DNA from: Catajapyx aquilonaris
Lineage: Eukaryota
Direction of reading: 5' to 3'
Assembly: GCA_000934665.2 (NCBI GenBank)
Contig: KZ538295.1
Location: 1 to 64,000, forward strand
DNA: 64,000 nt
In this document: positions 7,491 through 61,844 of the stretch, in pieces
How the letters are laid out: every line of letters starts with the position of its first letter
How positions within the stretch are numbered: the stretch's first letter is position 1
Notes under the pieces: model-generated
Told to the model about the DNA's origin: nothing
Databases searched by the model: none
Seen by the model: only the letters and a program-made list of their open reading frames with translations
Made by a program: the position numbers and the translations under genes

Positions 7491-8424
7491 TCAGTTTTTG
7501 TCGCTCTCGTCACCATCACTGTCATCACTGTCGCTGTCGTCATCTTCTTCATATTCAGTTTCCAATGTGAAGCACTGCAGCAGCGGAAGGTAGCCTTTGC
7601 AACGTTCCAAGCCAGGTTTTACTTCTGATTCTGAAATTATGTCATGTTTGCATCAGCCTATAGATATCACTGACTGTGAATATTTTAAATACTTTTCAAC
7701 AATGTAATGATATTGCACAATTTATGTGATTTTGACACCTTTGAAGATCACATAGCAGAACCTAATTAAAGTGGTTTAGAGGCCATTATGAGTCCATATT
7801 TACATTACAGCACAAGTTAAATCATATACTTTTGTAAAATAAAGTATAAAATAAGTTGTTCATTACCGTGCTCCTTGATACAGTTAAAAGTGATCTTCTC
7901 GTCTTCAGGATAATCTTTACATTGTTGCGTATTCTTTTCTAATTTTTCCATGTCAGGTTTACCATCCTCCTTCATCTGAATAGAAAGCATGTTCATCTCA
8001 ATATTTAATTTTAGGATTATACTGCAGGAATAATCACCAATAATAAACATACCAAACCTGTAGCAACTAAGCTGCATGACACGGCGCACTGAGAAAAAGT
8101 TCGGTATATTAAGTCACATATTAATATAACAAATTATTCGTATAGTTACATAAATTAATTATATTGCTCTTGCTTACTATTACTTATTTACATATTCACA
8201 TACTAATTAATTTAAGGCAGAACTCACGCCATAGTCTTCCTCATTTGGATATCTGTCGAAACACTCCTCGAGGATCGGTTCTGTCGAGTTGTCCGATAAG
8301 CACTGAATATGAACATATTGATAAATTTCCCCATGAATTAATCGACATCACATTGATCCCTTACCAGACCGTGAGCATGTTGCCAAAAAATCACGACACA
8401 GATTATGGAGAGGTATGCCTTCAT
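7491..8424 (-). CDS. OBP1: OBP-like, 8 Cys, acidic C-terminal tail
   Basis: Exons MKAYLSIICVVIFWQHAHGL / CLSDNSTEPILEECFDRYPNEEDYG / CAVSCSLVATGL / MKEDGKPDMEKLEKNTQQCKDYPEDEKITFNCIKEH / ESEVKPGLERCKGYLPLLQCFTLETEYEEDDDSDSDDSDGDESDKN*. Signal peptide plus C-x3-C and C-x8-C OBP spacing. Confidence 0.85.
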
Positions 8425-9587
8425 ATCTGGGCACATTCGCGGAAGGTACTAAATGGTAGAGCAAGTGGAGCTCATTTTAATGAAGGAAGTACATGACGTG
8501 CGTGACGCAATGACCGACGCGACGTACCTCGCTCATGTTCGCCGGTAACGTGACAAGTTTGTAACCTTATCCTGTCCATTGAAATTGGTCTGAGTGCCTA
8601 ACAAGAGCTCTTTTTCTGGTGAATGTATGTTATTGCTGGGGGGAAATTCCGGGATTGCAAAAAAGTTGTGCTTTGAAAAATTGTAACTACCTCAAGGCTG
8701 GGGGAAAAGGTCGCACGAAAGTTCGTTTTTCACTTGAAGATAATAATAATAATTTTTAAGCCGGGTCCGGGTTTTCGTGAAGCATAATTATTGCTTCCAT
8801 CCCTGTCTGCTATTTCATGAAAAAGTGAGGTTTCAGCATGTTACAATGCGTGCAATGCCATTTTAAGTAGATAAATAAATAAAAATTACACGGAACTGAA
8901 AATGGCCTCTAAAATTTTTGTTGTAGGTAGCTAGTGAATGTTGTAACATGTTGCATTGTTGTAGTATCGCAAACTGTCATATCAGGGATTGGTACGTAAA
9001 AGTACTTACAAACCTTGAGTCCTTTTGTTTCACCAGTATCTATGTAGAGCATCGCATTATTGTTACAGTCTGCTGAGCCTATTTATCTATTGTTTTGGGT
9101 GAGGCAAGTATTACACTATTATTTTGAATACCTGCACCAAAATGACGTGCATGTTCGTGCAGACCCACCCAATCTGCCAACACTTTTGACTCTAGCCCTC
9201 ATGTTGTGAGAGTCGTTATGACTTGGAATGATGATATCACGATTAATAATTTATTATAGTAACAGAGTTTGAAATAATGCTTATTGTGTATTTTTATGTA
9301 CAGTAGTACAAGGCACACACCTGGTGCAGAGGATAACTTTGGAGAAAGAGTAGTTAAGAGGAGTGAGTTTTGCTTATACCAGTTTACGCTATGAGAAGAA
9401 TTTCGTTTAACCCAGATTCGCCATTGGCAGATTCTATTGCATATTGTTAAAAATACAAGTAAAAACATGAATGAAGCAGCCGGTTTATTAAGATGGAGAA
9501 ATAAGTTGTGCTTGTGTGATTAGAGATACTCATATATTATTGATGCTTAATCAAACAACTCATTGACTCATGCCTTTAGCAGCCATA

Positions 9588-10527
9588 TTATTTGTCATCA
9601 ATCATTTCCATAACGCAATCCATCATAGGGTTGTACGCAGAACAGTGTTTATCGGTATCTTTAGGTACCACTTGATCTTCTGGAAAAGTAATCAATATTA
9701 TTGCTAGCACAGAGAAAAGCCTCAGTATATTTGACACTAGATGAAGTGTATATTAAATTGGTTCACCTATTTTCCTGAAACAAGCCATTAATGCCCTATG
9801 CTGCACCGTATCTTCTTCGCAGTGTATCATTATTCCCTCCATCCTGTTCACGTCAGGTCCTCCGTTCGGTAGCAACTGTGAAGGGGGTATACATAATAAA
9901 TTGTTAAAATTTATCGTCATAAGGCATTACAGGTATTACTTATTTGGAAATTTCACGGATACATACACAATCGGTTTCTTCCAGGATGCATCTTATAACG
10001 CACTGTAAAATGCGGAGAAAAATTACACAATGCTACTCCTTTAAAATGTGGCATTAAAAGTTCTTTCTCTTGTAAGCAATGTGATCCACGTGTATGGATT
10101 GCTTAATAATTATTGAGCACACCTTTATACAATACTTTGTCCATACATAAGTTTATGACAGGAGGTGGGTCATCAAATGTGGATGTTCACTCCGTTGTTG
10201 ACTACTATACTCACAAGACGTATAGTACGAATCGTAGTTTTTCACCAAACCGCGCTTTGTTGAAAAAGGAAGTAACCCAACATAATTTGGGACACTTACC
10301 GGAGCATCACGAGGGTCCGTCAGATCCCTTGTGCACCTGTCAATCATTGCTTTCTGCTCTTCTTCACTGTGGCATTTGAAGTCCTGTACAAGCATTGAAA
10401 AAGGAAACACACAGAATAAATCGGGCAATATCTGAGTATATAGGCTTACCTGTGGAGAGGATCTGCCTTGAACGTGACAGGTGAGAAGTGCGAGCCCAAA
10501 AAGCAGGCAGAGGCAAAGATGAGCCAT
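9588..10527 (-). CDS. OBP2: OBP-like, clade A, 9 Cys
   Basis: MAHLCLCLLFGLALLTCHVQGRSSPQ / DFKCHSEEEQKAMIDRCTRDLTDPRDAP / CVIRCILEETDC / LLPNGGPDVNRMEGIMIHCEEDTVQHRALMACFRKI / EDQVVPKDTDKHCSAYNPMMDCVMEMIDDK*. Confidence 0.85.
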
Positions 10528-10912: not shown

Positions 10913-11154
10913 ACTTTATAATTGATATTAAGGATGTTGGCCCAGCATTGCCTTTCAACCTCCAAGGATATAGGGAAGGAAGGAAGCGGCTGTGGTCTAT
11001 TATACGGAAGCGACCCCGGAATTATCCTACTGTAGAAAGACCGGAGAAAACCACAGAAAACCACGGTCAGGGTTGCAGGCCCCGGGGTTAGAACCCAGGA
11101 CCTCCCGATTAGCAGTAGTCGGACGCCTTATCCACCATGCCAACCTGCTTCGGT
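10913..11154 (-). mobile_element. tRNA-derived SINE
   Basis: Minus-strand Pol III A box TGGCATGGTGG and B box GGTTCTAACC. 12-bp target-site duplication agaatgtatgat at 10901-10912 and 11155-11166. Central block shared with the element at 48849. Confidence 0.8.
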
Positions 11155-11630
11155 AGAATGTATGATGCAGTATTCAACGTGTAAATCCCTATCAGTGTTT
11201 GGTAAGATGTGTGTTGCTTATTGCTGGGATAATCATCATTATGCATTATGATTTGGAAACTATTCCGACTCATATGCAGTGGGTAGCAGCAATACAGTCA
11301 GTTAATGGCAAACTCATACCTGTGAAAAGACCTACTGTACGTGTATACCCATCCAAAAATGTTCACTTTTGACTTTAGCCATTATGTTTGTGACAGTGCT
11401 TATAACTTAACTGGCACTGGTAACATTATGATTTACATTTTTGTAGCAGAGATTGCTCAGAATATTCAGAGAAAATTCATATATGACAATCATCTTAAAG
11501 CCAAATTTGTGACATTTCCCAGGGAGTGCAATAGTTGCGCAATATAAGCATTATTATCGGATAAACTGAGCTGCCTTGCACTAATTGTCTCACCCTTCAC
11601 TATCACATAGAGTAGTTAATGAAGTATCTA

Positions 11631-11948
11631 TTTTTTATTTATTTTCATTGCCCCATTGGGATTTACCATATCCTTTACCACCATCGGATATTGGAGCCGT
11701 ATAATAAGATCTTAATTAATTACTCCAGGGTAGGTAGGAGGGGATGTGCAAAGTGCAAGTGCAATGTCTCTAATCGTCATTTTGTGAGCTCCCCCGGGTG
11801 GCTTAGTCTGTCGGAAATTGCCACCCGAAATGAAGCCAGAGATGGTCCAACTCTGCGCGGATAAAAGTGGGAACCCCGGGTGGGGATCGAACCCGGGACC
11901 TTAATATCCGTGGGCGCGTGCGTTACTGCAGCGCCACTTCACCTCCCC
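11631..11948 (-). mobile_element. tRNA-derived SINE
   Basis: Head ggggaggtg... with B box GGTTCGATCC and an A-rich tail. 18-bp TSD tagttaat(g/c)aagtatcta at 11613-11630 and 11949-11966. Confidence 0.8.
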
Positions 11949-12072
11949 TAGTTAATCAAGTATCTAACTAGTATAAACAGTTTATTTAGAAATAAAATCA
12001 AGTTGCACTTACACAATGAGAGATGATACTGATTAGTTAGGTCCTTTGTATAGTTTAATTATTCAGATTTTA

Positions 12073-12954
12073 TCAGATTTTATCAGATTTCATAATGCAA
12101 TCCAACACACGGCTGTAAGCTTCACAGTATTTATCAGTACCTTTCGGTACCACTTGATTATCTGGAAAAGATATCATAATTGTTAGAAGATCCCAGGATG
12201 CCTCAATATTGAAAGTCTGTGTAGTATATTTTATGTTAAAATCATTGTTTCGCATACTAGGTATTTTCTTGAAACAAGCCATTAATGCCCTGCGATCCTG
12301 CTTCGTGTACTCTATGCACTTTGCGTGGAAAGCCATCACTCGGTTCATGTCTGGTCCTCCGTTTGGTAGAACCTGTGTAAGGGTATATTTTCCATTTTAA
12401 GTTTTAAAATATATCCTCATTGGCTATTACAGTATATTAGTCACAGAGTATAAAAGATATTCCACTGATACGTACACATCCATATTGTTGCATCAGGCAC
12501 TTTATGTAGCACTGTAAAATGCAGAGGAATGAAAAATTACACAATGCTAGTTTTTTTTTACATTATTGACTTGTGTTCTTAAAAGTAGCCCACATTATTT
12601 TCTTGTGTGGAATATGATATACTGTCATCATTTATGGATTCTTACTCCGTGGTGGAATAGTTTTTCCACCACACTAAATCTGCCTTTGTCGAGGAACCAA
12701 ATGAACATTATTGTCAGACTTACAGGAGCGTCACGCTGGTCGCCCGATCCTTCGTCTATGCATTTTAGGACCATTGTTCTCCTCTCTCCTGGACTCGGGC
12801 ATTTCAATTTCTGTGTAATTTTTGAAAAAGGAAACACAATAATTGTTATTTTCAAGGGATATCTGAGTAGACTTACCTGTGGGGAATTTCCACAATGAAC
12901 GTGACAGATGAGAAGTGTGTGTCCAAAAATTAGACAGAGGGAAAGGTTCTTCAT
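12073..12954 (-). CDS. OBP3: OBP-like, clade A, 9 Cys
   Basis: MKNLSLCLIFGHTLLICHVHCGNSPQ / KLKCPSPGERRTMVLKCIDEGSGDQRDAP / CYIKCLMQQYGC / VLPNGGPDMNRVMAFHAKCIEYTKQDRRALMACFKKIP / NNQVVPKGTDKYCEAYSRVLDCIMKSDKI*. Confidence 0.85.
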
Positions 12955-13317
12955 GTCTGTTGGTATCCGTCAAACTACAGATACTTCGTGCCAAGGGAAA
13001 GTGCAACCTTCGACTAAATTGTGTACGTAAACAATCTGCTGTGTACTCTGCTGAGATCCGTGCCAGGTTCGACACGAAACAACCTAATGCTGGATATTCG
13101 TGTGACTCTATTGCTGTGTCTTTCAAGTGAAGGACATGGTGTGGATCACACAGACTCGTCCACACAATCGTGCAATACATTGGGACGGGACACGGAAGGT
13201 TATGAAACCTGACGAATATATTGTCAATTTAGTCACATTCAGGGCTTCGTAACAGGAGTAGTTATTTAATCAGGGGCCAGAAATGCAGGTTGTTGTAATA
13301 ATATAATATTACCCAAG

Positions 13318-13660
13318 GGGGAGGTGTAGATGGCCGAGATGGTAACGGCGTCTCGGCTTGCAGAGTGAAAGGCCCCAGGTTCAATCCCCGCCTGGGGAAC
13401 TTTCCTTTCACCTGCGTCAGGAGGGTCTCTGACCTGCACCAAGGAGGTGTCTGGCAACCTAACCTCCTGGGGAACAGCACATGACCCCTTTACCGACATT
13501 GCACTTGCACGCATGTTCCCTCCCCAAAAATCCCTATCCTTACCCCATGTCCTTTCATCCTTGCACCGGAGTTAGAAGAAAAAGCAGAAAATGGAAGGAA
13601 AATTGGTGGTATTTCACCCCCCCCCCCTATGGCCCTATCACGGGGTAACGTAAAAAAATG
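13318..13660 (+). mobile_element. tRNA-derived SINE
   Basis: A box TGGCCGAGATGG, B box GGTTCAATCC, short A tail. TSD acccaag at 13311-13317 and 13661-13667. Absent from the paralogous flank near 15440. Confidence 0.8.
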
Positions 13661-13724
13661 ACCCAAGAACCAGTTGTAGAAAAAAGTTCTATACACTGTA
13701 TTTGTTAATTGTTTATTTGATAAA

Positions 13725-14117
13725 CCTTCTTCATTATTGGTTTATTTGGGTGGAGTAGTTGGTAAGAGGGGCAAGGGTAGGCCTAGGAAGACATGGTTGG
13801 ACCAGGTGGGCCAGTGTCTTAAGGGTGTTGCTAGTGTTAAGCCGAGACGTTCTTGTGTCAATAGGACCATGGACGTGGCTGAGGCTAGGGTTGTTTGTTT
13901 GGATAGGTGTAAATGGCGTAGGTTAATTAATGGGTAAATAGGTAAATACGTCTGAAGATAAGGTGATGTCTGAGGTGGGCAGGGGTGGGGGGTGGGACAG
14001 GTTGTTTTTAGGTTCTTTCTCATGTGTTTTATTAGTTCATATGTTGGGTTAGCTTGCATCTCCCTTCATCGCTGACTACCCCTCATAGGGAAATGTCGTG
14101 ATGTTGTTTGTTGTTTG
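13725..14117 (+). mobile_element. 5'-truncated RTE-clade LINE (ORF2 C-terminus, 3' UTR and microsatellite tail)
   Basis: Encodes GKRGKGRPRKTWLDQV...DRCKWRRL, typical of an RTE ORF2 C-terminus. (TTG/TTTG)n tail. 16-bp TSD ttgtttatttgataaa at 13709-13724 and 14118-14133. Confidence 0.85.
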
Positions 14118-14216: not shown

Positions 14217-15077
14217 TTATTTATCTGGAGCCGCTCTCATAACGCAATCCATCAGAGGGTTGTAAGCAGCACAGTATTTATCAGTATCTTTAGGTACTGC
14301 TTGATCTTCTGGAAAAGATATCATAATATTGTTAGAAGATAGAAATGCCTCAATATTTTGAAAGTCTGTGTAGTATATTAAATTATTGTTTCGCATACTA
14401 GGTATTGTCTTGAAACAAGCCATTAATGCCCTATGCGGCTCCGTGTCCTCTTCGCACTTTGCAGTGAAAGCCAGCACTCTGTCCATGTCTGGTAATCCGT
14501 TTGGTAGCACCTTTGTAAGGGTATATTTTCCATTTTAAGTTTTAAAATATATCCTCATTGACTATTACAGTATTAGTCACGTAGTATAAAAGATATTTCA
14601 CTGATACGTACACATCCAGTTTGTTGCAGCATGCACTTTACGACGCACTGTAAAATGCAGAGGAATGGAAAATTACACAATGCTAGTTTTTTTACATTAT
14701 TGACTTATGACCTTAAAATAACTCATTTCTTGTGTGGAATGTGATATACTGCCATCAGTTATGGATTGTTAAGTAACTCCGTTGTTGACTATATATTTTG
14801 AATAGTTTTCCACCACACTATTTCTGCCTTTGTCAGACTTACAGGAGCCTCACGCGGGTCATCTGCTACTTCGCTTGTGCATTTGTCCAACATTTTTCTC
14901 TCCTCCTCTTGACTCGGACATTTAAATTCCTGTGTAATTATTGGAAAGGAAACACAATAATTGTTCTTTTCAAAGGATATCTGAGTGCAGGCTTACCTGT
15001 GGGGAATCTCCACACTGAACGTGACAGATGAGAAGTAGTATGAGTCCAAAAATTAGACCGATGCAAAGGTTCTTCAT
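14217..15077 (-). CDS. OBP4: OBP-like, clade A, 9 Cys
   Basis: MKNLCIGLIFGLILLLICHVQCGDSPQ / EFKCPSQEEERKMLDKCTSEVADDPREAP / CVVKCMLQQTGC / VLPNGLPDMDRVLAFTAKCEEDTEPHRALMACFKTIP / ..DQAVPKDTDKYCAAYNPLMDCVMRAAPDK*. Confidence 0.85.
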
Positions 15078-15783: not shown

Positions 15784-16707
15784 TTATTCATCATCATCAT
15801 CAGCCATTTCTGCAACGCAATCCATCATAGGGTTGTAAGCTTCACAGTGCTTATCAGTGTCTTTAGGTACCACTTGATTTTCTGCAAAATATATAATTAG
15901 AATTATTAGCTTCTGAGCAGTATATATCCTAAAGGTGGTTCACCTATTTTCCTGAAACAAGCCATTAATGCCTTATGCGCCTCCGTATCTTCTTTGCATT
16001 GTATCATTATTGCTTCCATTTTGTTCACGTCTGGTGCTCCGCTCGGTAGCATCTGTGCATGGCATAATTTCCATAAGTCTTAATTCACCCTCATCAGGTA
16101 TTATAGTTATTGCATAGTATAATATTGGAGATATCACTGATACATACGCATCCAGTTTGTTGCAGAATGCACCTAATGACGCACTGTAAAATGCGGAATG
16201 ATTTAAAATATTACACAATGCTACTCTTTTATGATATTAAAATGTGGAATTTAAAGTACTTTTCTCTTGTACGGAATGCGATCCACATACGTATTTAATA
16301 AGTATTTTGCACCCCAACCTCTGGAGCCCACTTTCATAAATATGACTTTGTGGCATATGGTTTATGAAAACTCGTGTGTATGAAATAATTTTATGTAGTT
16401 TTCCACCTAGTTAATTTGGTGGCTTTGTCCACACGCACTAAGTAACCACAATATTATTTTGCAGACTTACAGGCAGATCATGAGGGTCCAGATTTTCCTC
16501 TGAGCACTTGTCCAGCATTGCTTTCTTCTCTTCTTCACTACGGCATTTGAAGTCCTATGTAATAGATTATTGAAATATGAAACACACAGCTTTGTTATTG
16601 TCATGCTATGTCTCAGTATATAGGCTTACCTGTGGAGAGGCTCCGCATTGAACGTGACAGGTGAGAAGTGCGAGTCCAAAAAGCAGACAGAGGCAAAGAT
16701 GAGCCAT
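15784..16707 (-). CDS. OBP5: OBP-like, clade A, 9 Cys
   Basis: MAHLCLCLLFGLALLTCHVQCGASPQ / DFKCRSEEEKKAMLDKCSEENLDPHDLP / CVIRCILQQTGC / MLPSGAPDVNKMEAIMIQCKEDTEAHKALMACFRKI / ENQVVPKDTDKHCEAYNPMMDCVAEMADDDDE*. Confidence 0.85.
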
Positions 16708-17546: not shown

Positions 17547-18379
17547 TTACTCGTCATCATTATCGTCATCATCTTCGTCCTCATCTTCGTCATCATCCTC
17601 CTCGTAATAATCTGTGTCCAATTCAAAACATTCCTCCATTGACCTGTAACCGCCGCAGCGTTTTAAACCCGGTTTGACATCGGCGGCTGTAAAATAATTT
17701 TGAAAAAATTAACATTACAAGTCAGCAGTTTCATTTCCAATGTATGAATATTATCTTACATTTTTCCTTGATGCAATCAAAAATAATCCTCTCCAGTTCT
17801 GGGAATTCTATGCAAGTCTCGAGGTTTTCTTCCATTTGCTTAATATCCGGTGTCCCATCCGGTAACAACTGTGAAAAAGTATAGCTAAGTAATTTCTTTG
17901 ACTTAACCACGTTTGTAGCAAGTACTATCTGGGGGGGAAAATGTTTTGTCCAAACGTATATCAATAACCATTGTGTGTGCTTCATTTATTTTCATTTTAT
18001 TTTCTAGCTATTTGTTGCATAGGTTTGGACGAAACCGTTTTACCCTAAGAGTAATACTCACCATATTAGCAGCTTTCAAGGAGCATGATACTGCACACTG
18101 TTAAAATACAAAAAAAATTAATACAAAACCCTGCAATAAAACAGCATAAAATCATAATAATAATAAAATGGCATACTCCTTCATCCTCTTCCTCTGGATA
18201 TTGCTCCCAACAATCATCGAAAAGAGCTTGGGTTGAATTGTGGGACATACACTGCAACCACATAATTTGCAACAGTCTATCAGGAACAATTTATGTACTA
18301 CATAATGTACGGTACTTACCAGACCCCATGTGTTGTTCACGATTACACCAAGAAATAGAAACAAGTAACAGATCCTCAT
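17547..18379 (-). CDS. OBP6: OBP-like, 8 Cys, poly-Asp/Glu tail (paralogue of OBP1)
   Basis: MRICYLFLFLGVIVNNTWGL / CMSHNSTQALFDDCWEQYPEEEDEG / CAVSCSLKAANM / LLPDGTPDIKQMEENLETCIEFPELERIIFDCIKEK / SADVKPGLKRCGGYRSMEECFELDTDYYEEDDDEDEDEDDDDNDDE*. Confidence 0.85.
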
Positions 18380-48784: not shown

Positions 48785-48848
48785 GGCAGCTGACTGAATT
48801 ACTCTATCTAATCTGCGAAAATTGCCTTTATAAGCTGAACGTCTCGCG

Positions 48849-49104: not shown

Positions 49105-49106
<2 letters not shown>

Positions 49107-49456: not shown

Positions 49457-50099
49457 GTAAGCCTTTAATCAGAGTTGACTAACTTACATTATGCGAACCA
49501 TGACAATACGAGGCGTGAATTGTTTCATGCTTCCGACATTGTCTTGTCCTGGCATGTTGCCTATGGAACCTGTAATAATTCCGGACATTCCGGAGTGTAT
49601 CAAATTGAAACTTGCGTGTGTCGGAAAACAATAACTCCGATTGTGATTTCGGGTTTTCCGTTGTCTTACTTTGGACTTGGACTAATTGATTATATTCGTG
49701 GCAATGATGGTAGAATATATTACATTAAACATCTTGTACTTATCCGGACTCCTGTCTAATTCACCGAAGTGTATAATTTTAACTACTTTTTTTGGTGACA
49801 AGTCCAGGATTTTCACATGGAAATTCCGTATCATCCGATGATTGCGCAATTCTGCTGACGAGTCATGTTTATATGATCCATATTGTGACCTTCACTTTTA
49901 AAATATTTCCCTGTGACCAGCACAGGACGTGAGATTCACACGAATATACAGCATCTGCTTGTTTTTATGGCAAACTCACGCATCTGAAGTAGAGCACACT
50001 GATTGTGTGAGGATATTTAAGCACATTTATAGCATACTCCGAAGGCAACACATTTCTGTGCTACAAACTAGCTTTGGTTTGGCAGATATACTGACAGAC

Positions 50100-51082
50100 A
50101 TGAAGCATCTTTGCCTCTACCTGCTTTTTGGACTCCTCATCTGTCATGTTCAGGGTAAATATGTCGAGCAGGTAAGCCTTTAATCAGACATCGCTGCATG
50201 AGTATAAAAATATATGTGTGTTTCTTTTTAAATGTCCTTTAATATGCGTGTACCATGTTCAATCAAAGGACTACAAATGCCCGGATAAAGAAGCAGCGAT
50301 TGATAATTGCTCACGCTTAGTATCGGACGACCCTCGTGATATTCCCGTAAGTCTGACAATATATTATTTGGTTTTTAAACAATGGCACAAATAGCATGAT
50401 GAAAACAACTTAAAAGCATAGGCAACAACGGAGTGACGATGATCCACATTTGACAATAATTAACGTTTCATAAAACAATATGCGCAGGGTATTGCATAAA
50501 ATGTACTCCCGAGGTTAGTGCAAAATTATTAAATGTATTATGCACCCCATATCTATATGCGTCACATTCCGTACTGCGCACGAGATAAGTACTTTTAATG
50601 TCACATTTTAATATTGCAAAGGTGTAGCATATTGTAACTTTGTATTCCTCTGCATTTTACAGTGCGTCGTAAGGTGCATGTTCAACGAAGCCGGATGTGT
50701 ATGTATCAGTGAAATCTTCAATGATACGGATTTAATATCTTTAATACTTGATGAGGATACACATTAAAATTTGATAAATTATACTCTTACATATAGTTGC
50801 TACCGAACGGAAGACCAGACATTGACAGGATGGAGGAAATGATGATGCGTTGCGAAAAAAACCCAGAGGCTGAGAAGCCACTAATTGATTGTTTCAGGAA
50901 AATAGGTGAACCTACACTGCACATACTGTCAGATATAGCCTCTTCTTGAGCTTTTTTATGAGCTAACAATAATAATCGCTCTTTCAGAAGATCAAGTGGT
51001 ACCAAAAGACACTGATGAGCACTGTGAAGCTTTCAACCCTATGGTGGATTGCATCACGAAACTGGAAAGTGATGCAACATAA
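50100..51082 (+). CDS. OBP21: OBP-like, clade A inverted (unit 3), 9 Cys
   Basis: MKHLCLYLLFGLLICHVQGKYVEQ / DYKCPDKEAAIDNCSRLVSDDPRDIP / CVVRCMFNEAGC / LLPNGRPDIDRMEEMMMRCEKNPEAEKPLIDCFRKI / EDQVVPKDTDEHCEAFNPMVDCITKLESDAT*. Confidence 0.85.
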
Positions 51083-51582
51083 TCAACAAGACGTAATCTG
51101 GGTTTCTATAATGACCTAACCCCGTCGTAAAACGACGGGGGCTAATGGTAGTTTAATGCTTTACTAATTACTGCAAGTGCCAATGTGTAACAACAGTATG
51201 TGGAGGTTTATTGTGTAGCCTACAGGCCACTAACTAAGCAACTGCTGATCACGGATTGATTAAAAATTAAACACACTGAATGGAAGGATTTATTTTTGTC
51301 GTACTAGTATCAGCAAGATGTCAGATACATTTCTGGTGATAAGGATGATGTGCAATTATGTTGTACACATATTATTTCAAAACACCTTCAACTCACACCA
51401 TCAAGGCGCTATAACAATGAACTAACATTCAAATTTGACACTGAATTAGCTGCTACATTTTAGGAACCTGCCGAAATAGAATATTAACGTAACAACGATC
51501 AGCATGTAATTAACTTTTAAAATATAGAGTGATCAGACAATAATACTCTCGCCTGTGGAAACTACAATATTTCAGTAAGTTG

Positions 51583-52262
51583 CTAGGCTGTAGGGCTTGC
51601 GTCTGTAGAATTGCACTTGATCAGCTCTTCATATCCCATGCAGTTGGGATGATTCTCAACAATATTGCTCGCTAAAAAGAAGCCAATCATGATGTCTTAT
51701 AGCCATTTGATTGAATACAAATAATTAAAATACGTTACCCGCTTCCTTGATGCACTTCATCATCTCATCTTTGCTGTTTGGATTACATTTGTCAAGAACA
51801 TTCTCCACTTTTTCCAGGTCCAGTTCGTCCTCTGATTTTAACTAAGGATTTTCAGCACAAAAAATATTCCATGAGCTTTGGCATATCCTGTTAGTTTGGG
51901 CTGTAATATTATGCCCCCAAAATGCTTACCATTTCTATCTTTTGCAGGAAGCATTTAACCACACACTGCAATAATAACGAGAAGTTAATACAACCACACA
52001 ATAAACGATATCAACAATAGTACTTGCCCCAGGCTTGGTTTTGGAGTCAGGAACTTCATTCCCGCAAGTTTCCATAGTCTTTGCAAAATCCTCGTTTGTC
52101 ATGCACTGTAGTTCAAAAAAATAGTTTTGAAGTTCAAGTATGCCTTCATTTAAGTCAATATGTTTTTACTTATCTTACTTTTGGTTCCTGACCAGTTGTT
52201 TGGTCGGTCAGGAATAATGCAGAGAAGCAAATGAGAAGCAGTACCGCACAGATTTGTTTCAT
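51583..52262 (-). CDS. OBP22: OBP-like, 8 Cys, intact copy of the unit (GC-AG intron 2)
   Basis: MKQICAVLLLICFSALFLTDQTTGQEPK / CMTNEDFAKTMETCGNEVPDSKTKPG / CVVKCFLQKIEM / LKSEDELDLEKVENVLDKCNPNSKDEMMKCIKEA / ASNIVENHPNCMGYEELIKCNSTDASPTA*. Confidence 0.8.
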
Positions 52263-53749
52263 GGCAGCCGACTGAATTACTCTATCTGCGAAAATTGCCT
52301 TTATAAGCCGAACGTCTCGCGCAAAAAATAACCTTCCAGCTCTTTTTTCCACGCTGCACGAGCTTCTTGAAATTTTGCATTTTTAAATTAATTTTAAAAA
52401 ATGTATCTTTGGTCAATGTTTGATTCGTAGTATGTCGCTATGACGTTGGACTACTAATAAATTACCTGTCAAGTAAGAGACACAGGTTCTTGTAAGAGTG
52501 TCGCCGTGTCTTTCTTATAATCTTACTTAATGAGAATACTACAGTTACATAACCACAAGTACCAAGGACGTTACATACCGAGACGTTGCATCAAATCCTC
52601 ATTCATCATGACTAATAATCTCGGATAATACGAGTATTACGGAATATTCCGGAGATGGTGTATTTACGCTCCACTGAAGATGAGAGAGATTGCTTTGATG
52701 ATATAATAATACCACGACTCATTCAAGTCTGAGTCACATAACATTTGGAAAATTGCAAGGGTTTCATTGGCAATGAGATCGTTGCATTATCCTAATTAAA
52801 ATCCTGCGGTTCATAGTCGAAATGGGTGATTATACGGTTTGTTGCAATTGGAATGTCCGTAGTGGTTTACAATATTTTCTGCAGCTAATCTGATTATTAT
52901 TATAATTTGCTCTGCAGCCATTATTCCTAGAAGTTATTAGCAATATTCGATTGCTAAGTATTACGTTTAACAAAAACTTGAATTGGGATAAAATTTCCAT
53001 TGACATCATGCACATTCTCTCTTTCGAAAGTAATAAATAATGACTTTCTGCCAATATTGCTGAGTAATGAATGGAATATTCCAGCAATCAATATAAGATT
53101 GCATGATGAATTAGCTAGTTTCTTTTTCTTGCTCTGATCATCGATTGCACACAAACAGTGAATTATACTGCCTTCTTCCCATTATTATCTCGTGCCCTTT
53201 TTTTCACGACCGCATATCATGCCCCCTAATCAAAGCATTGTTATGTCTGCAATAATTTTACACGTTTGCGTAGCCGTAGACCGATGCGATGTCACAATAT
53301 TACGGCCTTCTCGATGTATAAGTCGGAAGCGGAAAAGCTACCATTCTGAAAGCTTGTCAAATGCAACAAAGGCACACCAGTCGAGTAGTCATACGCTATA
53401 GAAATAATGAATGCACAAAACTATTGTGTAAGAGTGGACATTACTGCGGGGTAATCAATACGTATTAGAAGAAAATCAGTTAATATTTTAGTACAGTACA
53501 ATACAGTTACTATCATTATTGTGGTCACACGTCTCAGCATTGGCAGATTTTACACTAACATTAAAAATCTAGATGACATGTACAGTACAATGAAAAGAAC
53601 ATGCGGTAATGATTATTCTGATGCTTTTTATTCACGTCCATCGTCATAATTATGCTTTTAAAATGACATACGGTAAGTCTAGTAGTAATAGACCGAAAGC
53701 ATTGTTGTTTCTGAACAGAACAGCTGTAGGAAAGTTCCAATAGCAAAGT

Positions 53750-54528
53750 TTACCAGCATTCCCTCAAGCCTTCGTAGCCCTTGCAGTTGGCATCACTGGA
53801 GTCGATCTTGCTCTCTATACAATTGAAAGCAGTGTAAGTAACATAATTGGGTACAGTGTAATTAACACTCACCTTCTTTCTTGACACACTCCAACACCGG
53901 ATCTTTTCGAACAGGATTGCACTTGTCTAAAATAGCTCCAATTTTGGCCGAATCTGGTTTACCATCTGGCTTTATCTGAAAGTTTTGTTTAAAAAACGTT
54001 AAATAGAGCAGGCTGCTGCTTAACAAGGAATAATTAAAACCATGCCACCAGAGTCCCTACCGTTTGGGTCTTCTGCATGTAACATTTTACAACACACTGA
54101 AACAAATCATGGTTAGATTAGTACAAATCATATTTTACTATGCGTTTTTCTGCTGCACTTACCCCAGGTTTGGATTTTGAGTCAGGTATTTCTTTTTTGC
54201 AATCATCAACCTTCTGTTTAAACTCCGCTGCTGTCTCGCACTATATATACAAAGCAAGAAAATATTTGTTAATCTACTGGTAAAACATGTTTATTAATAT
54301 ATTATTCAATCTGTGTTGAAAATGCATTTTGTCAAATAAAAAAAAAATAAGTGTTCATACATCATGTGTAGACTCTTAAGAATGAAAGGTTTGTGACCTC
54401 AATAGTATATTTTAAGGGTTAGCACACAATTTTAAATTAGTTCAACTTACTTTATCCTGGCCACTGACATGACCGGCCAGTAACACTGCGAGGCAGCAGA
54501 CAACCAGGTAGGCACAGATCGGTTTCAT
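53750..54528 (-). CDS. OBP23: OBP-like, 8 Cys, ends one residue after the last Cys
   Basis: MKPICAYLVVCCLAVLLAGHVSGQDK / CETAAEFKQKVDDCKKEIPDSKSKPG / CVVKCYMQKTQT / IKPDGKPDSAKIGAILDKCNPVRKDPVLECVKKE / ESKIDSSDANCKGYEGLRECW*. Confidence 0.85.
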
Positions 54529-55707
54529 GACGAATGAGTGAGGACAGTCCATAGGAAGATTCTTTTATAAGCCCCCAATATCCTCGTCATACACGCAAAA
54601 AAAAAACCCGCAACCTTCGCCATGTCGGAGAGGTCACTTTCAAGTTGTATTGTCATGGATATTTTTTTGTTGCTATTGGTGCCAAATGTTTCCCCTGTAC
54701 CTGTAATGTTGAACTAATGAATCATGGCCAGCCTCTTTTTTTATATAGTCGTGATGCCCTTCTAGGGGTTATAAAAAGTCTTTTGAATCGAAAAGAGTAT
54801 TGTTACATAACCGTCTGGATGAGCAAGGACGTTCTGCATCGAGAGATCCATCGAAGTCATGCATATCGTGTTGAGTGTTATAAACTTATGGCGATGGTGG
54901 AATTTTAGTTAAGTTATAATGAGTAATCGTCATGTGGCAGTGTGGCAGACTAATTAAGAACAAAATGAGTTCCCACGGATATTACACAATTTATACACAA
55001 TTTTTCCGCAATGCTGAATGTCGCCGTAAGCATCAGTATCCGTGATTTACTATTTCATGTTCTAGAGACTGTATGTAGGCAATGTAGGCCTACACATATG
55101 TGGCATACCAAAAATAAAAATATGGATTTTGTTCAATTCCATGAATACAGATCAAAAAGTGCAAATCATTAAAATAATTGAATAACAGATAATTCGGAAA
55201 CTATTGCTTTCAACACTTAATTATTTTGTACTGTACTATAGTGGACGAATACATCACACTTGTGTTTGTATATTCTTTCGTGAATTTCTGCAAGGTTCCT
55301 TTGTATCTTTTTGGAAGTATTTGTTACATTATAGTTTTTGTGCCAAGGACAAACAGTGCTTGTGTGTTTTACTCTTATAAATTCTATTTTTACCTCGTTT
55401 TACAAACAGGGCGCTTTATTTATAAATTTGACCTTGCTTACAGATGGAATCGCCTATTATTCAGTGCAGTCTAAAAATCGTCCTTAACACTGAGTTTCAT
55501 AGGTTTTGAGTGTCCAAGGTGGCAGGTAGGGTTTCCTGTACTTTACATTCTCGTTTTGTAATTATTAACATGAGAAAGGTTCCGAGTTCTATTTATAAAT
55601 CGTATATAAAGATACAGGCAGTTTAAATCCCATTTTTAAAAAACACACACGCATGTTCATGGGACATTGAGTCATGCGCCGTTAAGATTTTGGCAACATT
55701 ATTTTGC

Positions 55708-56986
55708 CTATGTTTCCACACACTCCATCATGATTAAATATCCTTTGCAATCTGGCTGGTTAGGGTCAACCAGAGGGCCTGAAAAGGAAATAAATAATTT
55801 TAGGAGAAATGCAGCAATAGAAGAAGGTCAATATATTAGAAACATACACAGGTGTTGCTTTAGTAATAATATTTATGGTTAATAATATATATTTGTTAAC
55901 CTCTCAATTTTTCTGCTCACTAAATAACTTATTTACCTTTTTCATCCAGGCACTTGAGCAAGTCTCTCTTTCTTTTTCCATCTGGTTTGCAAATGTGGAC
56001 TAAATTTTTCATCTCTTCAATTTTCGGTCTTCCATTTTCCGTCAGCTGAACAAAGCACAAGAATAACCGTTATAAATGATCACATTTTGATGACACCAAA
56101 ACATTGTCTGCAACACGTATTAGATTATTTAAAGGCGAAGACGTTTACTCAAGTATAGACCATTGTTGCGTTTGTAGAGGAGTAGAGGAGAGTAAAATGA
56201 TCAAAACCATATTTTGACGAATTAGGAAGAGAGAAAGCTAACTTTATCGAATAGTGAATTGATCCTAAATAGGTGCAAAATATCTGAAATAAATAATATT
56301 ATAATAACATAAAAAGTAGAAATGATTATTAAATGATAAAATGTGAATAATATTAATATAAAATTGTAACCAAAAATAAAAATAGGTTCAATTTATTGGT
56401 GGCATTATTTCCGATATATCCGATATTAGAATTTCAAAATGTCAGGTTTTATCGAATACCTTGAGTGATCTCAAGTGCCTAAAAGGAAGCAATATTTTAA
56501 TTTCCTCCTTTCAATTACATAACTTTAAACTGTCGTCTTAATCTAGTGTTCCTCCCACCTATTCTCTTAAAAGGCGATCATGTGTGACCTACCTTTTCAC
56601 CCCTCTCCAAGACGCATTTAATCAGGCACTGAAAAGACCCAGTCAATAAGAAAATGTAATTTTTTTTAAAAAAAATGTAATATTAATAATCTGCTTGCAC
56701 TGCCATCGACTTACACCTGGTCTTTCCATATGATCAGGATTCTCCTTCAGACATTCATATAATCGCTCTCTTGCTTGCGCATGTGACTCCGGGCACTATA
56801 ACAGATGGTGTTGAATGCAGTTTCCATCAGTAAGATTGTTGAGGTGGGGGAAACCCCCCCCCCCCCCNCCCATCTGTGGTTAAAACACCAATGAATCATG
56901 CTTGGACTTACTTCCTCTCCGCAAGCTTGACTGCTCAGGTAAAATGCTGCGACGCAGAACACAACAAAAGTGCAGCTCGACTTCAT
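55708..56986 (-). CDS. OBP24: OBP-like, 8 Cys
   Basis: MKSSCTFVVFCVAAFYLSSQACGEE / CPESHAQARERLYECLKENPDHMERPG / CLIKCVLERGEK / LTENGRPKIEEMKNLVHICKPDGKRKRDLLKCLDEK / GPLVDPNQPDCKGYLIMMECVET*. Confidence 0.85.
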
Positions 56987-57384
56987 GGCGAGTGACAAGG
57001 TTATGTAACCCTAGGAAAAGTCCTAGTGCTTTTGTATATGATGGAAAGGGGATGGGGAGGAAGGTGGAGGGATGTGCTACAGTCAAAAAGTCGCATGCTG
57101 ACATGAGGGCTTAGGAGAGATGTTTATTTTTGGTATTCTGCAAGCCCACGTCATTTCCTGTCTGAGGCCCCCATATAATTCAAATTCAAAGTCAAGGATT
57201 GCCATTCGGAGGACGACAACAATAAAACACATTTCAAGACAGTGCAATATTTTCTAACAATACTTTTTTTTAATTATTCATTTTATTCAGATCACCTTGT
57301 AGCCTCTAATTATTATCTCCGCAAGCTGCCAATAGTGCTTAGCAAGAGTACACCAAAATGATTTATGCTGCACGCTGTTTTACA

Positions 57385-58032
57385 TTAAGGTTCAGGATAA
57401 CATTTCCATAATTCCAGGTAGGACTTGCAGTCAGGTTCATCGGTCTTAAAGTTCGGTCCTGAAACTGAAGTGCAGTATAATATTATTAGCGTAGGTGGGA
57501 ACATGGAAAATGTATAGCAAACCTTACCATGGTTTCTGAGGCAAGTGACAATCTTCTGGAGTTCATCATCAGGTGTGGGTTTATCTGCGCATTTTTCAAC
57601 CCTAGCTGATACTTTATCCACGATTGGAATATCATCATCTCCCATCTATAAGTTTGTTTTACATGTTGAGATAAGTAAAACGCATTTCAGTTATAATATG
57701 CTACTTACAAGGTTATTGACTTTCATCATGCATTTCATAAGGCACTGAAAGGTGCAAGAAACTGTCATAAAACCGGGTATATTGTATTTGCAACTATTTA
57801 ATTTAGTTTTCATTTACTCCAGGCTTTTCATCGATGTCAGGAATTTCCTTCGCGCATTGTTCAATCTGCAGGTTTTCTTCGCTGTCTGTCGGACACTAAA
57901 TTACAAATGGTAATAATTCATAAATAATCTAAGATACGTACTGATAAAAGTTAAACTTACATTGACATCAGCACAAACTTGGTTCACAGCAAGTAATGAC
58001 GAGCAGCAAAGTAACATGTATATCCCCACCAT
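57385..58032 (-). CDS. OBP25: OBP-like, 8 Cys
   Basis: MVGIYMLLCCSSLLAVNQVCADVN / CPTDSEENLQIEQCAKEIPDIDEKPG / CLMKCMMKVNNL / MGDDDIPIVDKVSARVEKCADKPTPDDELQKIVTCLRNH / GPNFKTDEPDCKSYLELWKCYPEP*. Confidence 0.85.
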
Positions 58033-58305
58033 GTTGAAAGGCAAGTTTCTATAGGCTTGCGGGGTTGCCTGCCTTTTTGTACATTTTTTTTTCGTGAGGT
58101 GCACAATTACACGACCTCGAGCACGTGCAACAGGAAGTGTAATCCTGTTTGGCTTGTCACCAGCAGGTATTGCTCGTGTTTGAAAATAAAAGCCCGCATT
58201 ACAATATACTGTATTAATTATTTCACAGGAAATTGGGTCCTCGGAAATAGGTTTTTTTATAGAAAGAGTACGCCGAAATGATATTCATGCTGTAGTTTAT
58301 TTGCA

Positions 58306-58973
58306 CTATTCATCAGAATCAGGGTAACACTTCATTAATTCCGAAAAGGACTTACAGTCAGGTTCATCAGGCTTGACGTTCGGTACTGCAAATTAAATGA
58401 AACAATTAGCGAAGGTTAGGAACATAGTAATGTACAAGTATATAACAACACTTACTCTTGTCTCTCAGGCAAGTCACAATCTTCTGAAGCTCCTCCTTAG
58501 AACTGCGTTTATCAGCGCAATTTTCCACACGTTCGGCTATTTTATCAGCGATTGGAATACCATTATCTCCCAGCTGAAATTCGAAAAAATAGATTAATAT
58601 TATTCACATACGTAAAACACATTTTAGTGTTCATGTTTTACTTACCAGGTTATTGGCTTTCAACATACATTTTACGAGGCACTGAAAGGATCAAGAGAAC
58701 TACTTTCATAAAACTGTGGGTAATCATTATCTGCAACGTAACTAAGTTTTAATGTAAAGTACCCCGGGCTTATCTTGAGGAACTTCCTTATCGCATTGTT
58801 CGAACTGCAACTTTTCTTCGCTGTCTGTCGGACACTGCATTACAAAATGGTAACAATATTAATACAGTTCATAATCTACATTACAGAAAAGTTTTACTTA
58901 CATTGACATCAGCGCAAACGTGGTTGAAAACAAGTAATGAAGAGCAACAAAACAACACATATATCCCCATCAT
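58306..58973 (-). CDS. OBP26: OBP-like, 8 Cys (paralogue of OBP25)
   Basis: MMGIYVLFCCSSLLVFNHVCADVN / CPTDSEEKLQFEQCDKEVPQDKPG / CLVKCMLKANNL / LGDNGIPIADKIAERVENCADKRSSKEELQKIVTCLRDK / IPNVKPDEPDCKSFSELMKCYPDSDE*. Confidence 0.85.
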
Positions 58974-59593
58974 GATGAAGAGATTTTCTAACCATATAAT
59001 AATATAGGGTTACCTGCCTTTTTTGTACTTTTTTTCTGAAGTGCACAATGACACTACCGGAACAGGAAGTGTATTATCATTTGGCCAGTCTCTGAGTATT
59101 GCACGTTTCAGATCTCAGATAAAATCAAGACATAATAAGAAGTGATTGTAGTGGTATGTTTTTGAATGTACCCTGGAGAATTTATTTCTACGATGGAATT
59201 ACCACTGTTAGAAATAATATACATTATCTCTATTTTACCAAACTGTCATGTCGTGTGATGTTTATAATAAAATATAAGGCAGCAGAGTGTAGTAAACAAA
59301 GTACAATAGATAATAAAAAAAATCAACATAATGTCTTTCTCGATGTGGATATCAAACCTATCGCGGCACCATTCCTGTCACATTTGAACGTAACTGTTCA
59401 TTTTAATGGGAATAAATTTAAAATAACGAAGACAAAATATATTTCAACGAAAGTTTTTATAAAGTTGTTAAGTAACACCTGAGAGTTATCAGTTTATGGC
59501 AGAATATGGGAGGAATATTTAGAAAACTTACATGCGCTGCTATAAAACGTATGCTATCGTTTATTTGGTAGATAGGAAAGTGACATATTATTT

Positions 59594-60267
59594 TTAGTTC
59601 ACGGCAGGGCACGCTGCTTTTATCTGAGCCCAACAACCTTCAAGATGTACGTAGTTGGTGCATCTAGCATTATTGGGGATCCATGGGGCTATAATTTTAG
59701 AAGTGCAGGCAGTTACACACATAGATGTAATTGCTCTAAAACGCACAGTACTAACCTTGTTCGATGCATTTCTTGTAGTCTTCTGCAGCATTGTTGTTAG
59801 CGCATTTGGGAATAATGCAGAAGTCGACAAACTCTATTATACGCGGAATATTCGGTTTTTGTTTAGAATCCATCTGTATTATATTGATGGCGATAAAAAA
59901 AACACTGCGATTTGAAAGAATATCATAACCGTACTAGATCTTACCTGTGGTGAATTTTGAAGCCAACATCCAGCTATGCACTAAAACATATAGACAATTA
60001 CTTTAAAATCGCATATGCATCTGATCATATAAAGTGTACTTACTCCTGCCTCTCCTTTTTCAAAATACGTTAAACACAACTTGACTGAAGACCTGGTCAC
60101 TTCTGAAGGGTTGCACTGGAATGGGGACAGTCTCACAGATAATGCGGCCAATAATGTGAGCCATAAATCCTTAAAATCCAAACCTCAAATGTAGCCATCG
60201 CACTACTCGGGAAGATCACTGGGAGACACAACACGAAGCAGTAAATCTGTATGCGAGAAAACTTCAT
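59594..60267 (-). CDS. OBP27: OBP-like, 10 Cys
   Basis: MKFSRIQIYCFVLCLPVIFPSSAMATFE / CNPSEVTRSSVKLCLTYFEKGEAG / CIAGCWLQNSPQ / MDSKQKPNIPRIIEFVDFCIIPKCANNNAAEDYKKCIEQ / APWIPNNARCTNYVHLEGCWAQIKAACPAVN*. Confidence 0.83.
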
Positions 60268-60798
60268 GACGGATATATTACGGATGGTGAATCGCGTAGC
60301 TCACTATGGAGTGCTTTGATTTATAAAATGTGCTATTGTGTTCTGCCCTATGGCATCTTAGGCATAGTGCCTTGTGGGACAATGGCTCGCAAAAATAGTT
60401 ATCAGCTAGGGGAAAAACTTTGATCTCTTTCGATACAAATATGGGCTATATATGCTATAAGTTAAAGAGAGCATTAATATTTTTGTTTAAGTACCGCATG
60501 AATCGAAGTACTGTGCACTATTTTATTGAAGCCTGATTTTTTCAAGCTATGTCAATAATTTGTGTGTTTATGCTTGCAGGTTAATAAACAAAACCTATAC
60601 AAGCTACAAATTCTTGCCCAAGTTCTTGCCAGTCTGGCATGTCAGCCAAAATGTTGAAAATATGGGACAACCTGCTTTTTTGACAAAATGATAAGTTAAA
60701 CCAAAAGCAAAGCTTTAAATAATTACTTGTACAGCATACATACAGAAGGCGTACGTGCCACATTAAAATTAAACTGTGTGCATTTACTCTCAGCAATT

Positions 60799-61844
60799 TT
60801 ATTTCTCAGAAGGTGAGTCATCATTGGCTTCTTGCTCCTCTTCTGGCTGGTTAGTGTCAGAAACAGTGGAACTCTCGGGTTCTGGTACCTCATCTTGAGG
60901 AGTGTCTTCAGGTTCTGGATTTTCCGGTTCTGGTACCTCATCTTGAGGAGTGTCTTCAGGTCCTGGAGCAGGGACATCGGCAGCTGTGGAAGTCTCTGGT
61001 TCTGGAGCCTCGGTTTGGGGTACTTCCGATGTTTCAGTAGGTTCAGGTTGTGTTGGTGTTTCAGGACTTGAGTTGCAGTTGAAAAACCTTTCATAATCTT
61101 GGCATAATTCGTCATTAGTGTCGAAGTTTGTTCCTGCAATAACAACGTGCGTATTAGTGACAGTTGCCTTTGTGCTAACCAGAAAGTGCTGCGTGTTTTT
61201 AAAACATCCCGGACAAATGGATTCTGACATTATATACAAACATCAGAACTCTAGCAAGGCTGATTGTTGCAATGAATCAGGTGAGATTAGACCTACACTA
61301 CCTTTTAATTGGTCCAAGCAAGCCAGAAGACTTTTCATCCTGGAGTCGGTGATTTCATTTTTAATGCAAGTCGTGCAATACTCCTTTATCTTGTCAATAT
61401 CCGGTTGGCCATTACCATCCACCTAAATCGACATCAGGAGGCCAATTATTGAAATTAACAACTTTTTAAAGTACATAATGAAAATTGAACATACCCTTCC
61501 AGACTTCTCCAAAAAGCATCTTACAGCGCACTGAAATGTTTGCAAGAGATTTCTTAGTGACAAGGTATAATAACAAGTCATTGCATATTTTGAACATATA
61601 ATATCCTCATGACATTGTGATCAATTTGCTTAAATTATTTCGGAGTAAAACTTACTGATGCTGTCATTTGTCTGCATTCGTCAAACTCTGGAGCATGTGC
61701 ATTACACTGGAACAGAACAGATTTTGCAATATAATGACAAGAGGAATCATTTTTATTCTCACCTATACTTACTTGCTGTGCTTCAGCTACATTTCTTAAT
61801 GCAATTAGGAGACTGCACATCAAGGCCAGGTAATTCAGCTCCAT
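60799..61844 (-). CDS. OBP28: OBP-like, 9 Cys, with a ~90-aa Pro/Glu/Ser/Thr-rich tail
   Basis: MELNYLALMCSLLIALRNVAEAQQ / CNAHAPEFDECRQMTAS / CAVRCFLEKSGR / VDGNGQPDIDKIKEYCTTCIKNEITDSRMKSLLACLDQLK / GTNFDTNDELCQDYERFFNCNSSPETPTQPEPTE...PEDTPQDEVPEPE (x2)...DDSPSEK*. Confidence 0.85.

Follow-up and report, generated by a model that had tools for sequence, protein, structure and literature searches.

A stretch of 64,000 nucleotides (nt) from Catajapyx aquilonaris (contig KZ538295.1 of assembly GCA_000934665.2, positions 1 to 64,000; hereafter the window) contains a dense array of small cysteine-rich genes and raises the question of whether these encode relatives of the insect odorant-binding proteins (OBPs) or a secreted family of another origin. 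An earlier interpretation of these letters, the sequence-only reading, had placed 28 five-exon loci of an eight-cysteine, OBP-like family between 7491 and 61844. Here, both the total and the limits were recovered exactly, with the stop codon of the first gene at 7491 and the ATG of the last at 61844, but the 54-kb span holds 26 intact five-exon genes and two pseudogenes. We regard the array and its gene models as practically beyond doubt. For the encoded proteins, divergent OBP relatives acting as carriers of small ligands represent the best explanation, which we hold with moderate confidence.

The intact genes follow one layout, in which a signal exon precedes an exon with two cysteines (Cys), a short exon carrying a C-x3-C motif, a further two-Cys exon and a last exon with C-x8-C. 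Each of the 26 intact genes has a third exon of 36 nt and introns in phases 0, 0, 0 and 1. In a six-frame C-x3-C scan of the window, this recurrent short exon begins with Cys and always has CAG upstream. With lengths of 36-140 nt, the 335-nt last exon of g61530 being the single exception, the exons are too short for open reading frame (ORF) scans, from which the sequence-only reading had described the array as largely hidden. Introns mostly span 50-350 nt, and three are of the GC-AG type, each with the donor GCAAGT (Table 1). The window as a whole is AT-rich (GC content ~0.34-0.48) and of eukaryotic gene structure, and scans of it for Rfam families and tRNAs gave no match.

The locus g19095, whose exon layout was read by eye, served as template for the gene search, which started from anchors of the form AG/TGYn9TGY and chained GT and AG sites downstream in fixed phases; upstream exons were modelled afterwards, and eight loci were curated by hand after the scripted modelling. 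The downstream search yielded 27 chains from 41 anchors in the real sequence, compared with one chain from 10 anchors in the reversed sequence and none from the 5-10 anchors of three codon-block shuffles. The 27 chains include anchor 59980, which took exons of its neighbour, and g59980 was re-modelled by hand.

Public sequencing runs gave evidence of splicing. For positions 50000-59999, four DNA runs from one sample contained 94-95% of the sampled words and a fifth run, X5, contained 26%; contigs of X5 and of the DNA run X1 were then compared with 42000-61900. Fourteen of the 15 joints listed come from X5, and all 14 coincide to the base with predicted introns in five genes (Table 1). The GC-AG intron of g51965 is among them, the spliced X5 contig skipping it with its CT..GC ends included. 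By contrast, none of these 14 joints occurs in the X1 contigs over 42000-61900, one of which is unbroken across 52239-60907. X5 consequently behaves as a transcript assembly, since its joints match the predicted introns whereas the DNA of X1 runs straight through. This splice support covers five of the 26 genes, the contig depth cannot rank their expression, and stretches without X5 cover, both pseudogenes included, were not counted as evidence. In intron 1 of g56628, an X1 contig is three letters shorter at 56866, beside the N at 56868, which points to a small assembly gap.

The tandem array is evolving by birth and death, with paralogues diverging fast. Its clades mostly correspond to physical neighbours, and one clade is split between four minus-strand genes at 9.6-16.7 kb and three plus-strand genes at 42.8-51.1 kb; the opposite orientation of the two parts therefore indicates an inverted transfer. 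The interval 42272-52504 holds three tandem segmental-duplication units of 2.7-2.9 kb each, ~3.6-3.8 kb apart and 88-92% identical, each holding one plus-strand and one minus-strand family member. Only the third unit has retained an intact minus-strand member (g51965), while psi44776 and psi48500 carry the same frameshifts, one each in exon 1 and exon 2, and two lone signal-exon relics sit between the units. In one DNA contig of X1, 45171 is followed directly by 49195, with the 4023 nt in between missing; copy-number variation, a collapsed repeat or the presence of a second haplotype may account for this. Ratios of non-synonymous to synonymous substitution (dN/dS, Nei-Gojobori) were 0.75-1.43 in five pairs with dS < 0.2 and 0.27-0.60 in seven older pairs, with two further pairs saturated; the samples are small and the values above 1 are not significant.

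At the protein level, a MAFFT alignment of the 26 spliced products shows eight columns that are Cys throughout, with the spacing C-x9-15-C-x6-12-C-x3-C-x25-26-C-x10-16-C-x10-17-C-x8-C. The formula of the sequence-only reading was nearly the same, differing in the ranges given here as 9-15, 25-26 and 10-17, and the two spacings that it had singled out as OBP hallmarks, C-x3-C and C-x8-C, are both invariant in all 26. The strong divergence described there also became apparent, as pairwise identity ranges from 13 to 88% with a median of 23%. Several clades carry one to three Cys beyond the eight. Exon 1 encodes a hydrophobic h-region in 26 of 26 intact genes (9-residue mean Kyte-Doolittle value of at least 2.0, a heuristic and not SignalP), consistent with the signal peptide assigned to every locus before. 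The first invariant Cys lies within three residues of the end of the signal exon, on either side. The part following exon 1 comprises 93-108 residues in 23 proteins, 93-119 in 25 and 180 in g61530. Acidic residues (D+E) outnumber basic ones (K+R) in 20 of 26. The alignment-averaged hydrophobicity spectrum is strongest at 100 degrees, the value of an alpha-helix, with a slight rise at 155-160 degrees.

In three members the eighth Cys is followed by a long C-terminal tail of low complexity, which is poly-Asp/Glu in g8088 (7491-7560) and g18097 (17547-17620) and rich in Pro/Glu/Thr in g61530 (60799-61060).

An AlphaFold2 model was obtained for one read-through of exon 4, intron and exon 5 (84 amino acids (aa)). 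At a mean predicted local distance difference test score (pLDDT) of only 65, it places helices at residues 9-18 and 23-36 (exon 4) and at 63-66 and 69-81 (exon 5), i.e., three main helices, with the intron-coded part forming a hairpin. In the same fragment (pLDDT 65), the sixth Cys (Cys VI; the invariant Cys are numbered I to VIII) is predicted towards the end of one helix, and the last helix region contains Cys VII and VIII at a distance of nine residues.

How well do these proteins agree with OBPs? The general OBP motif reads C1 X15-39 C2 X3 C3 X21-38 C4 X7-15 C5 X8 C6 (excerpted from PMC2808328), and X3 and X8 are called constant spacings in Table 2 and the Discussion of that paper. With Cys I, III, IV, VI, VII and VIII taken as C1 to C6, 22 of the 26 proteins fall within the broad six-Cys range given for Diptera (Table 2, PMC2808328), compared with 21 of 5200 shuffles (0.4%); the gaps I-III, IV-VI and VI-VII are the ones lying within this range. 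The strict general motif from the same excerpt (PMC2808328) is found in 8 of 26 proteins as against 10 of 5200 shuffles (0.2%). In the part of PMC6175461 drawn on here, OBP genes are described as having a phase-0 intron that parts the signal exon from the remainder. Such an intron directly follows the signal exon in all 26 genes. What we take to be the OBP consensus, i.e., C2-x3-C3 followed by a Gly/Asp-rich turn and then a helix, also fits, although this is an assumption and not a test. The OBP reading is plausible but unproven.

Several results weigh against OBP kinship. The gap corresponding to C4-C5, at 10-17 residues, exceeds the strict 7-15 of the excerpted motif in 11 of 26 proteins, and the helix propensity plot is crude. 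Furthermore, profile and homology searches were run with unspliced translations of the window (single exons and read-throughs of 36-107 residues, partly intron-coded), for which eight introns in seven genes, being in frame and free of stops, provided contiguous read-through ORFs. Eight partial translations (five exon 4-intron-exon 5 and one exon 2-intron-exon 3 read-throughs, and two last exons) gave no match to the Pfam family PBP_GOBP (PF01395) at E values up to 10. Two exon-4 profiles, A2 and A4, the latter of which scores family members below A2, retrieved no OBP from 177,635 PDB sequences, and a search of 1.84 billion representatives with a 26-row exon-4 profile uncovered no member of the family. 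Word-based protein searches with the exon-4 ORF of g10002 and the exon 4-5 read-through of g57744 returned no match in a library that includes the NCBI eukaryote proteins. Similarly, exon-level queries of 36-86 residues identified no annotated OBP homologue in other species, the ESM Atlas offered no usable match, and Foldseek found nothing at E <= 0.001 for the partial AlphaFold2 model. A positive control, the read-through ORF of a neighbouring dehydrogenase gene, matched adh_short with 74.6 bits, so that the approach works for a well-conserved family. These negatives are nonetheless weak, because the queries were short and partly intron junk and because OBPs are hard to detect by similarity (PMC5381652, in excerpt).

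Two sets of candidates were rejected on the way. The sole Pfam match of the partial translations, VDE lipocalin, reached 15.9 bits and stayed under the cut-off of 25.7, and the four matches of the 26-row exon-4 profile were unrelated repeat proteins with a G-x-P-D...K-C motif.

The main rival explanation is a lineage-specific family of secreted helical eight-Cys proteins unrelated to OBPs, which we consider unlikely, if far from negligible. Such proteins would be convergent small carriers, signalling or pheromone peptides, or salivary, seminal or defence proteins, sharing C-x3-C and C-x8-C with OBPs by chance or through a convergent helix-stapling geometry. The missing link to PBP_GOBP by hidden Markov model (HMM), sequence or fold in the partial-sequence searches speaks for this, as do the strict OBP pattern in only 8 of 26, the nearly absent N-terminus before the first Cys, and a flanking dehydrogenase exon whose only outside matches are fish proteins with 52-53% identity. 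However, the queries behind these negatives, single exons or pairs of exons joined by intron junk, are weak ones for a family that similarity searches detect poorly (PMC5381652, in excerpt), and two exact OBP spacings are invariant, with 22 of 26 proteins in range at the I-III, IV-VI and VI-VII gaps as against 0.4% of shuffles. Gene structure and physico-chemical profile likewise suit OBPs.

Membership in a named class, i.e., Plus-C OBPs or the chemosensory proteins (CSPs, OS-D), is very improbable. Eight Cys are reminiscent of Plus-C OBPs, and large arrays of these exist, with 61 genes in Blattella (PMC6175461, in excerpt), but the Plus-C pattern, C1 X8-41 C2 X3 C3 X39-47 C4 X17-29 C4a X9 C5 X8 C6 X9-11 C6a (from the excerpt of PMC2808328), matches 0 of 26 proteins, as does the CSP pattern. 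The additional Cys fall between C1-C2 and C3-C4 and not after C4 and C6, and the genes have five exons as opposed to the 7-9 short coding exons of most Blattella OBP genes (PMC6175461, in excerpt). The idea that these are no functional genes at all, but ORFs chained up by chance, members of a repeat family or a defunct array, could draw on the two clearly decayed copies and on dN/dS values near 1 in the youngest pairs. For the array as a whole it is already refuted by 27 chains versus 0-1 in the null controls, by 26 open frames with eight invariant Cys at a median identity of 23%, by spliced contigs for five genes and by dN/dS of 0.27-0.60 in the older pairs. A search of the literature found no OBP class with this eight-Cys layout in running text, which is weak evidence of absence as key patterns appear only in figures (locust paper); the layout may already be described somewhere.

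If the OBP reading is followed, the next question is which cysteines correspond to C1 to C6. The sequence-only reading had considered the second Cys as the true C1, implying loss of helix 2. This is probably wrong in detail and is not needed, as Cys I in the role of C1 gives a C1-C2 gap of 21-26, inside the published X15-39 (PMC2808328, in excerpt). With Cys VI as C4, the C3-C4 gap amounts to 36-42. This would leave Cys II, in the C1-C2 interval, and Cys V, in the C3-C4 interval, as the additional pair. With the first Cys located at the mature N-terminus, it is probably the segment before C1 that is short, and not helix 2. Classic OBPs have an N-terminal stretch preceding C1, for which the array proteins would leave no room.

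The data show the genes themselves, the splicing of five of them, the Cys core, the helical periodicity and the history of duplication and decay; from these we infer OBP homology, the disulfide pairing and ligand binding as parts of one proposed mechanism. The array would consist of expressed genes for small secreted proteins, mostly acidic and all-alpha, which could act as soluble carriers enclosing a small hydrophobic ligand between amphipathic, disulfide-locked helices. The classic bridges C1-C3, C2-C5 and C4-C6 would be kept as Cys I-IV, III-VII and VI-VIII. A fourth disulfide, as suggested by the sequence-only reading, is made possible by the invariant eight-Cys core; as bridge II-V it would tie the short C1-C2 segment to the helix between C3 and C4, and might thereby compensate for the near-empty N-terminus before C1, in a fold of about five helices instead of six. 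Repeated local duplication, one inverted transfer and fast amino-acid change between paralogues would make the presumed pocket diverse, whereas neither the eight Cys nor the exon sizes and intron phases change. Whether this amounts to a hitherto unrecognised class of arthropod carriers, with a five-helix, four-disulfide "N-short" OBP-like fold missed by standard OBP profiles and annotation pipelines, is a tentative suggestion to which we assign a rather low probability.

The classic OBP fold is compact and all-alpha, with six helices and three interlocked disulfides. The array proteins resemble classic insect OBPs (PF01395) in being secreted, small, mostly acidic and helical in their periodicity, as well as in their tandem arrays with rapid turnover, but differ by eight invariant Cys instead of six, one of the two additional ones falling in the C1-C2 and the other in the C3-C4 interval, and by a first Cys at the mature N-terminus. 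They are also about 15-25 residues shorter. With the Plus-C OBPs, which have a conserved Pro after C6, they have two traits in common: the number of conserved Cys exceeds six, and a single genome carries a very large tandem array. Chemosensory proteins are small secreted helical arthropod carriers as well, but their four-Cys pattern C-x6-8-C-x16-21-C-x2-C is found in none of the 26 array proteins. Chelicerates and myriapods likewise have Cys-rich secreted proteins, OBP-like ones and other candidate carriers, which are poorly detected by standard HMMs; such proteins are cited in PMC6175461. In Blattella germanica, the Plus-C clade comprises 71 genes, 61 of them in one array (PMC6175461, in excerpt), and the OBP expansion of Cloeon dipterum, large and lineage-specific as the present one would be and in need of manual annotation, comprises 191 genes, many of them expressed in gills (PMC7250882, in excerpt). 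The main text of the latter paper gives no Cys pattern and no occurrence of the word "cysteine", and four exon-3 peptides had no match in 12 of its 20 supplementary files, the likely sequence file lying outside those 12.

Table 1. Loci of the array in the window, with exons listed in order of translation (joints written lower > higher window position).
Locus	Span	Strand	State	Exons	Product (aa)	Remarks
g8088	7491-8424	-	intact	8365-8424, 8228-8302, 8053-8088, 7867-7975, 7491-7630	139	poly-Asp/Glu C-terminal tail
g10002	9588-10527	-	intact	10450-10527, 10300-10383, 9967-10002, 9767-9875, 9588-9679	132	clade A
g12511	12073-12954	-	intact	12877-12954, 12724-12810, 12476-12511, 12258-12372, 12073-12161	134	clade A
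g14647	14217-15077	-	intact	14997-15077, 14843-14929, 14612-14647, 14399-14510, 14217-14308	135	clade A
g16183	15784-16707	-	intact	16630-16707, 16471-16554, 16148-16183, 15944-16052, 15784-15881	134	clade A
g18097	17547-18379	-	intact	18320-18379, 18177-18251, 18062-18097, 17760-17868, 17547-17686	139	poly-Asp/Glu tail; sister of g8088
g19095	18750-19348	-	intact	19283-19348, 19158-19223, 19060-19095, 18898-19006, 18750-18832	119	exactly 8 Cys
g21035	20550-21345	-	intact	21274-21345, 21105-21176, 21000-21035, 20711-20828, 20550-20629	125	intron 4 GC-AG (20711/20629)
g23179	22673-23486	-	intact	23415-23486, 23250-23321, 23144-23179, 22843-22960, 22673-22752	125	intron 4 GC-AG (22843/22752); young duplicate of g21035
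g25184	24704-25969	-	intact	25898-25969, 25363-25434, 25149-25184, 24868-24985, 24704-24783	125	
g27751	27127-28697	-	intact	28629-28697, 27868-27939, 27716-27751, 27521-27632, 27127-27215	125	689-nt intron 1; extra Cys
g31287	30697-31627	-	intact	31553-31627, 31384-31452, 31252-31287, 30863-30971, 30697-30791	127	
g33125	32435-33494	-	intact	33423-33494, 33220-33285, 33090-33125, 32644-32752, 32435-32517	121	
g35679	35221-35961	-	intact	35890-35961, 35758-35829, 35644-35679, 35408-35513, 35221-35324	129	
g37055	36649-37375	-	intact	37307-37375, 37188-37262, 37020-37055, 36789-36897, 36649-36722	120	model least certain of all, at exon 1 and the 44-nt intron after it
g41449	40802-41784	-	intact	41710-41784, 41537-41599, 41414-41449, 40962-41073, 40802-40875	119	13 Cys in total
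g43424	42840-43850	+	intact	42840-42911, 43016-43102, 43424-43459, 43556-43664, 43756-43850	132	clade A; repeat unit 1
psi44776	44384-45043	-	pseudogene	exon 3: 44741-44776		relative to g51965: 4 nt more in exon 1 and 1 nt more in exon 2; intron-2 donor lost through a 9-nt deletion
signal-exon relic	45371-45442	+	lone relic			clade-A signal-peptide exon (tblastn)
g47225	46673-47607	+	intact	46673-46744, 46839-46916, 47225-47260, 47353-47461, 47513-47607	129	repeat unit 2
psi48500	48110-48784	-	pseudogene	exon 3 from 48509		two frameshifts as in psi44776; second Cys of C-x3-C to Gly, seventh Cys to Ser
second signal-exon relic	49382-49456	+	lone relic			clade-A signal-peptide exon (tblastn)
g50663	50100-51082	+	intact	50100-50171, 50269-50346, 50663-50698, 50797-50905, 50988-51082	129	repeat unit 3; X5 joints 50346>50663 (intron 2), 50698>50797 (intron 3)
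g51965	51583-52262	-	intact	52179-52262, 52028-52105, 51930-51965, 51739-51841, 51583-51671	129	intron 2 GC-AG (52028/51965); X5 joints at all four introns
g54096	53750-54528	-	intact	54451-54528, 54163-54240, 54061-54096, 53873-53975, 53750-53814	119	X5 joint 53814>53873 (intron 4)
g56628	55708-56986	-	intact	56912-56986, 56715-56795, 56593-56628, 55937-56045, 55708-55778	123	single N of the window (56868) in intron 1
g57744	57385-58032	-	intact	57961-58032, 57818-57895, 57709-57744, 57528-57645, 57385-57464	127	length with upstream ATG; X5 joints at introns 2-4
g58681	58306-58970	-	intact	58902-58970, 58763-58834, 58646-58681, 58456-58573, 58306-58385	124	
g59980	59594-60267	-	intact	60184-60267, 60044-60115, 59945-59980, 59756-59873, 59594-59688	134	most divergent; 12 Cys in total; X5 joints at all four introns
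g61530	60799-61844	-	intact	61773-61844, 61656-61706, 61495-61530, 61302-61422, 60799-61133	204	Pro/Glu-rich tail of ~90 aa past the eighth Cys

Apart from the gene family, the window contains further elements. Two tandem short-chain dehydrogenase genes of the 15-hydroxyprostaglandin-dehydrogenase-like type flank the array on the minus strand (3620-4700 and 6108-7120); the copies are 82% identical over 898 nt of DNA, their read-through ORFs score 74.6 and 28.9 bits against adh_short, and it is one of their exons whose best library matches are the fish proteins mentioned above. Between g37055 and g41449 lies a DNA-transposon-like insertion (37811-39724) with terminal inverted repeats of ~170-240 nt, the arms 37887-38030 and 39506-39649 being 98% complementary, with 150-nt subterminal tandem repeats at 37453-37885 and a GC-rich interior whose ORFs have no Pfam match. 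A trinucleotide microsatellite at 48900-49110, giving poly-Ile/Leu/Asn in translation, represents a genome-wide repeat in view of the very high contig depth in both runs (summed depth in the bin 48640-49303 of 39,205 in X1 and 2,122 in X5). Interspersed repeats between clade-A genes, at 11000-11950 and 13260-13940, contain ORFs that translate tRNA-like cores of short interspersed nuclear elements, and an ORF resembling a retroelement tail (13680-13937) had no Pfam match.

Large OBP arrays are already known from Blattella (PMC6175461) and Cloeon (PMC7250882), as the excerpts used here describe, so that an array alone is unsurprising; the unusual part is the fixed eight-Cys layout together with the truncated N-terminus. 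Carriers of the OBP type belong to the fastest-evolving and hardest-to-annotate arthropod families, and the size of their repertoires is used to infer chemical ecology. An array of 26 genes that escaped ORF scans and exon-level homology searches illustrates the extent to which such repertoires can be undercounted. Should the proteins not be OBPs, they would constitute a new family of secreted helical proteins undergoing rapid diversification. If the proposed mechanism holds, the invariant fourth disulfide and the truncated N-terminus would amount to a natural experiment in re-stapling the OBP scaffold, and if the "N-short" proposal were true and the host an early-branching hexapod or non-insect arthropod, the array would inform the timing and number of origins of OBP-type carriers.

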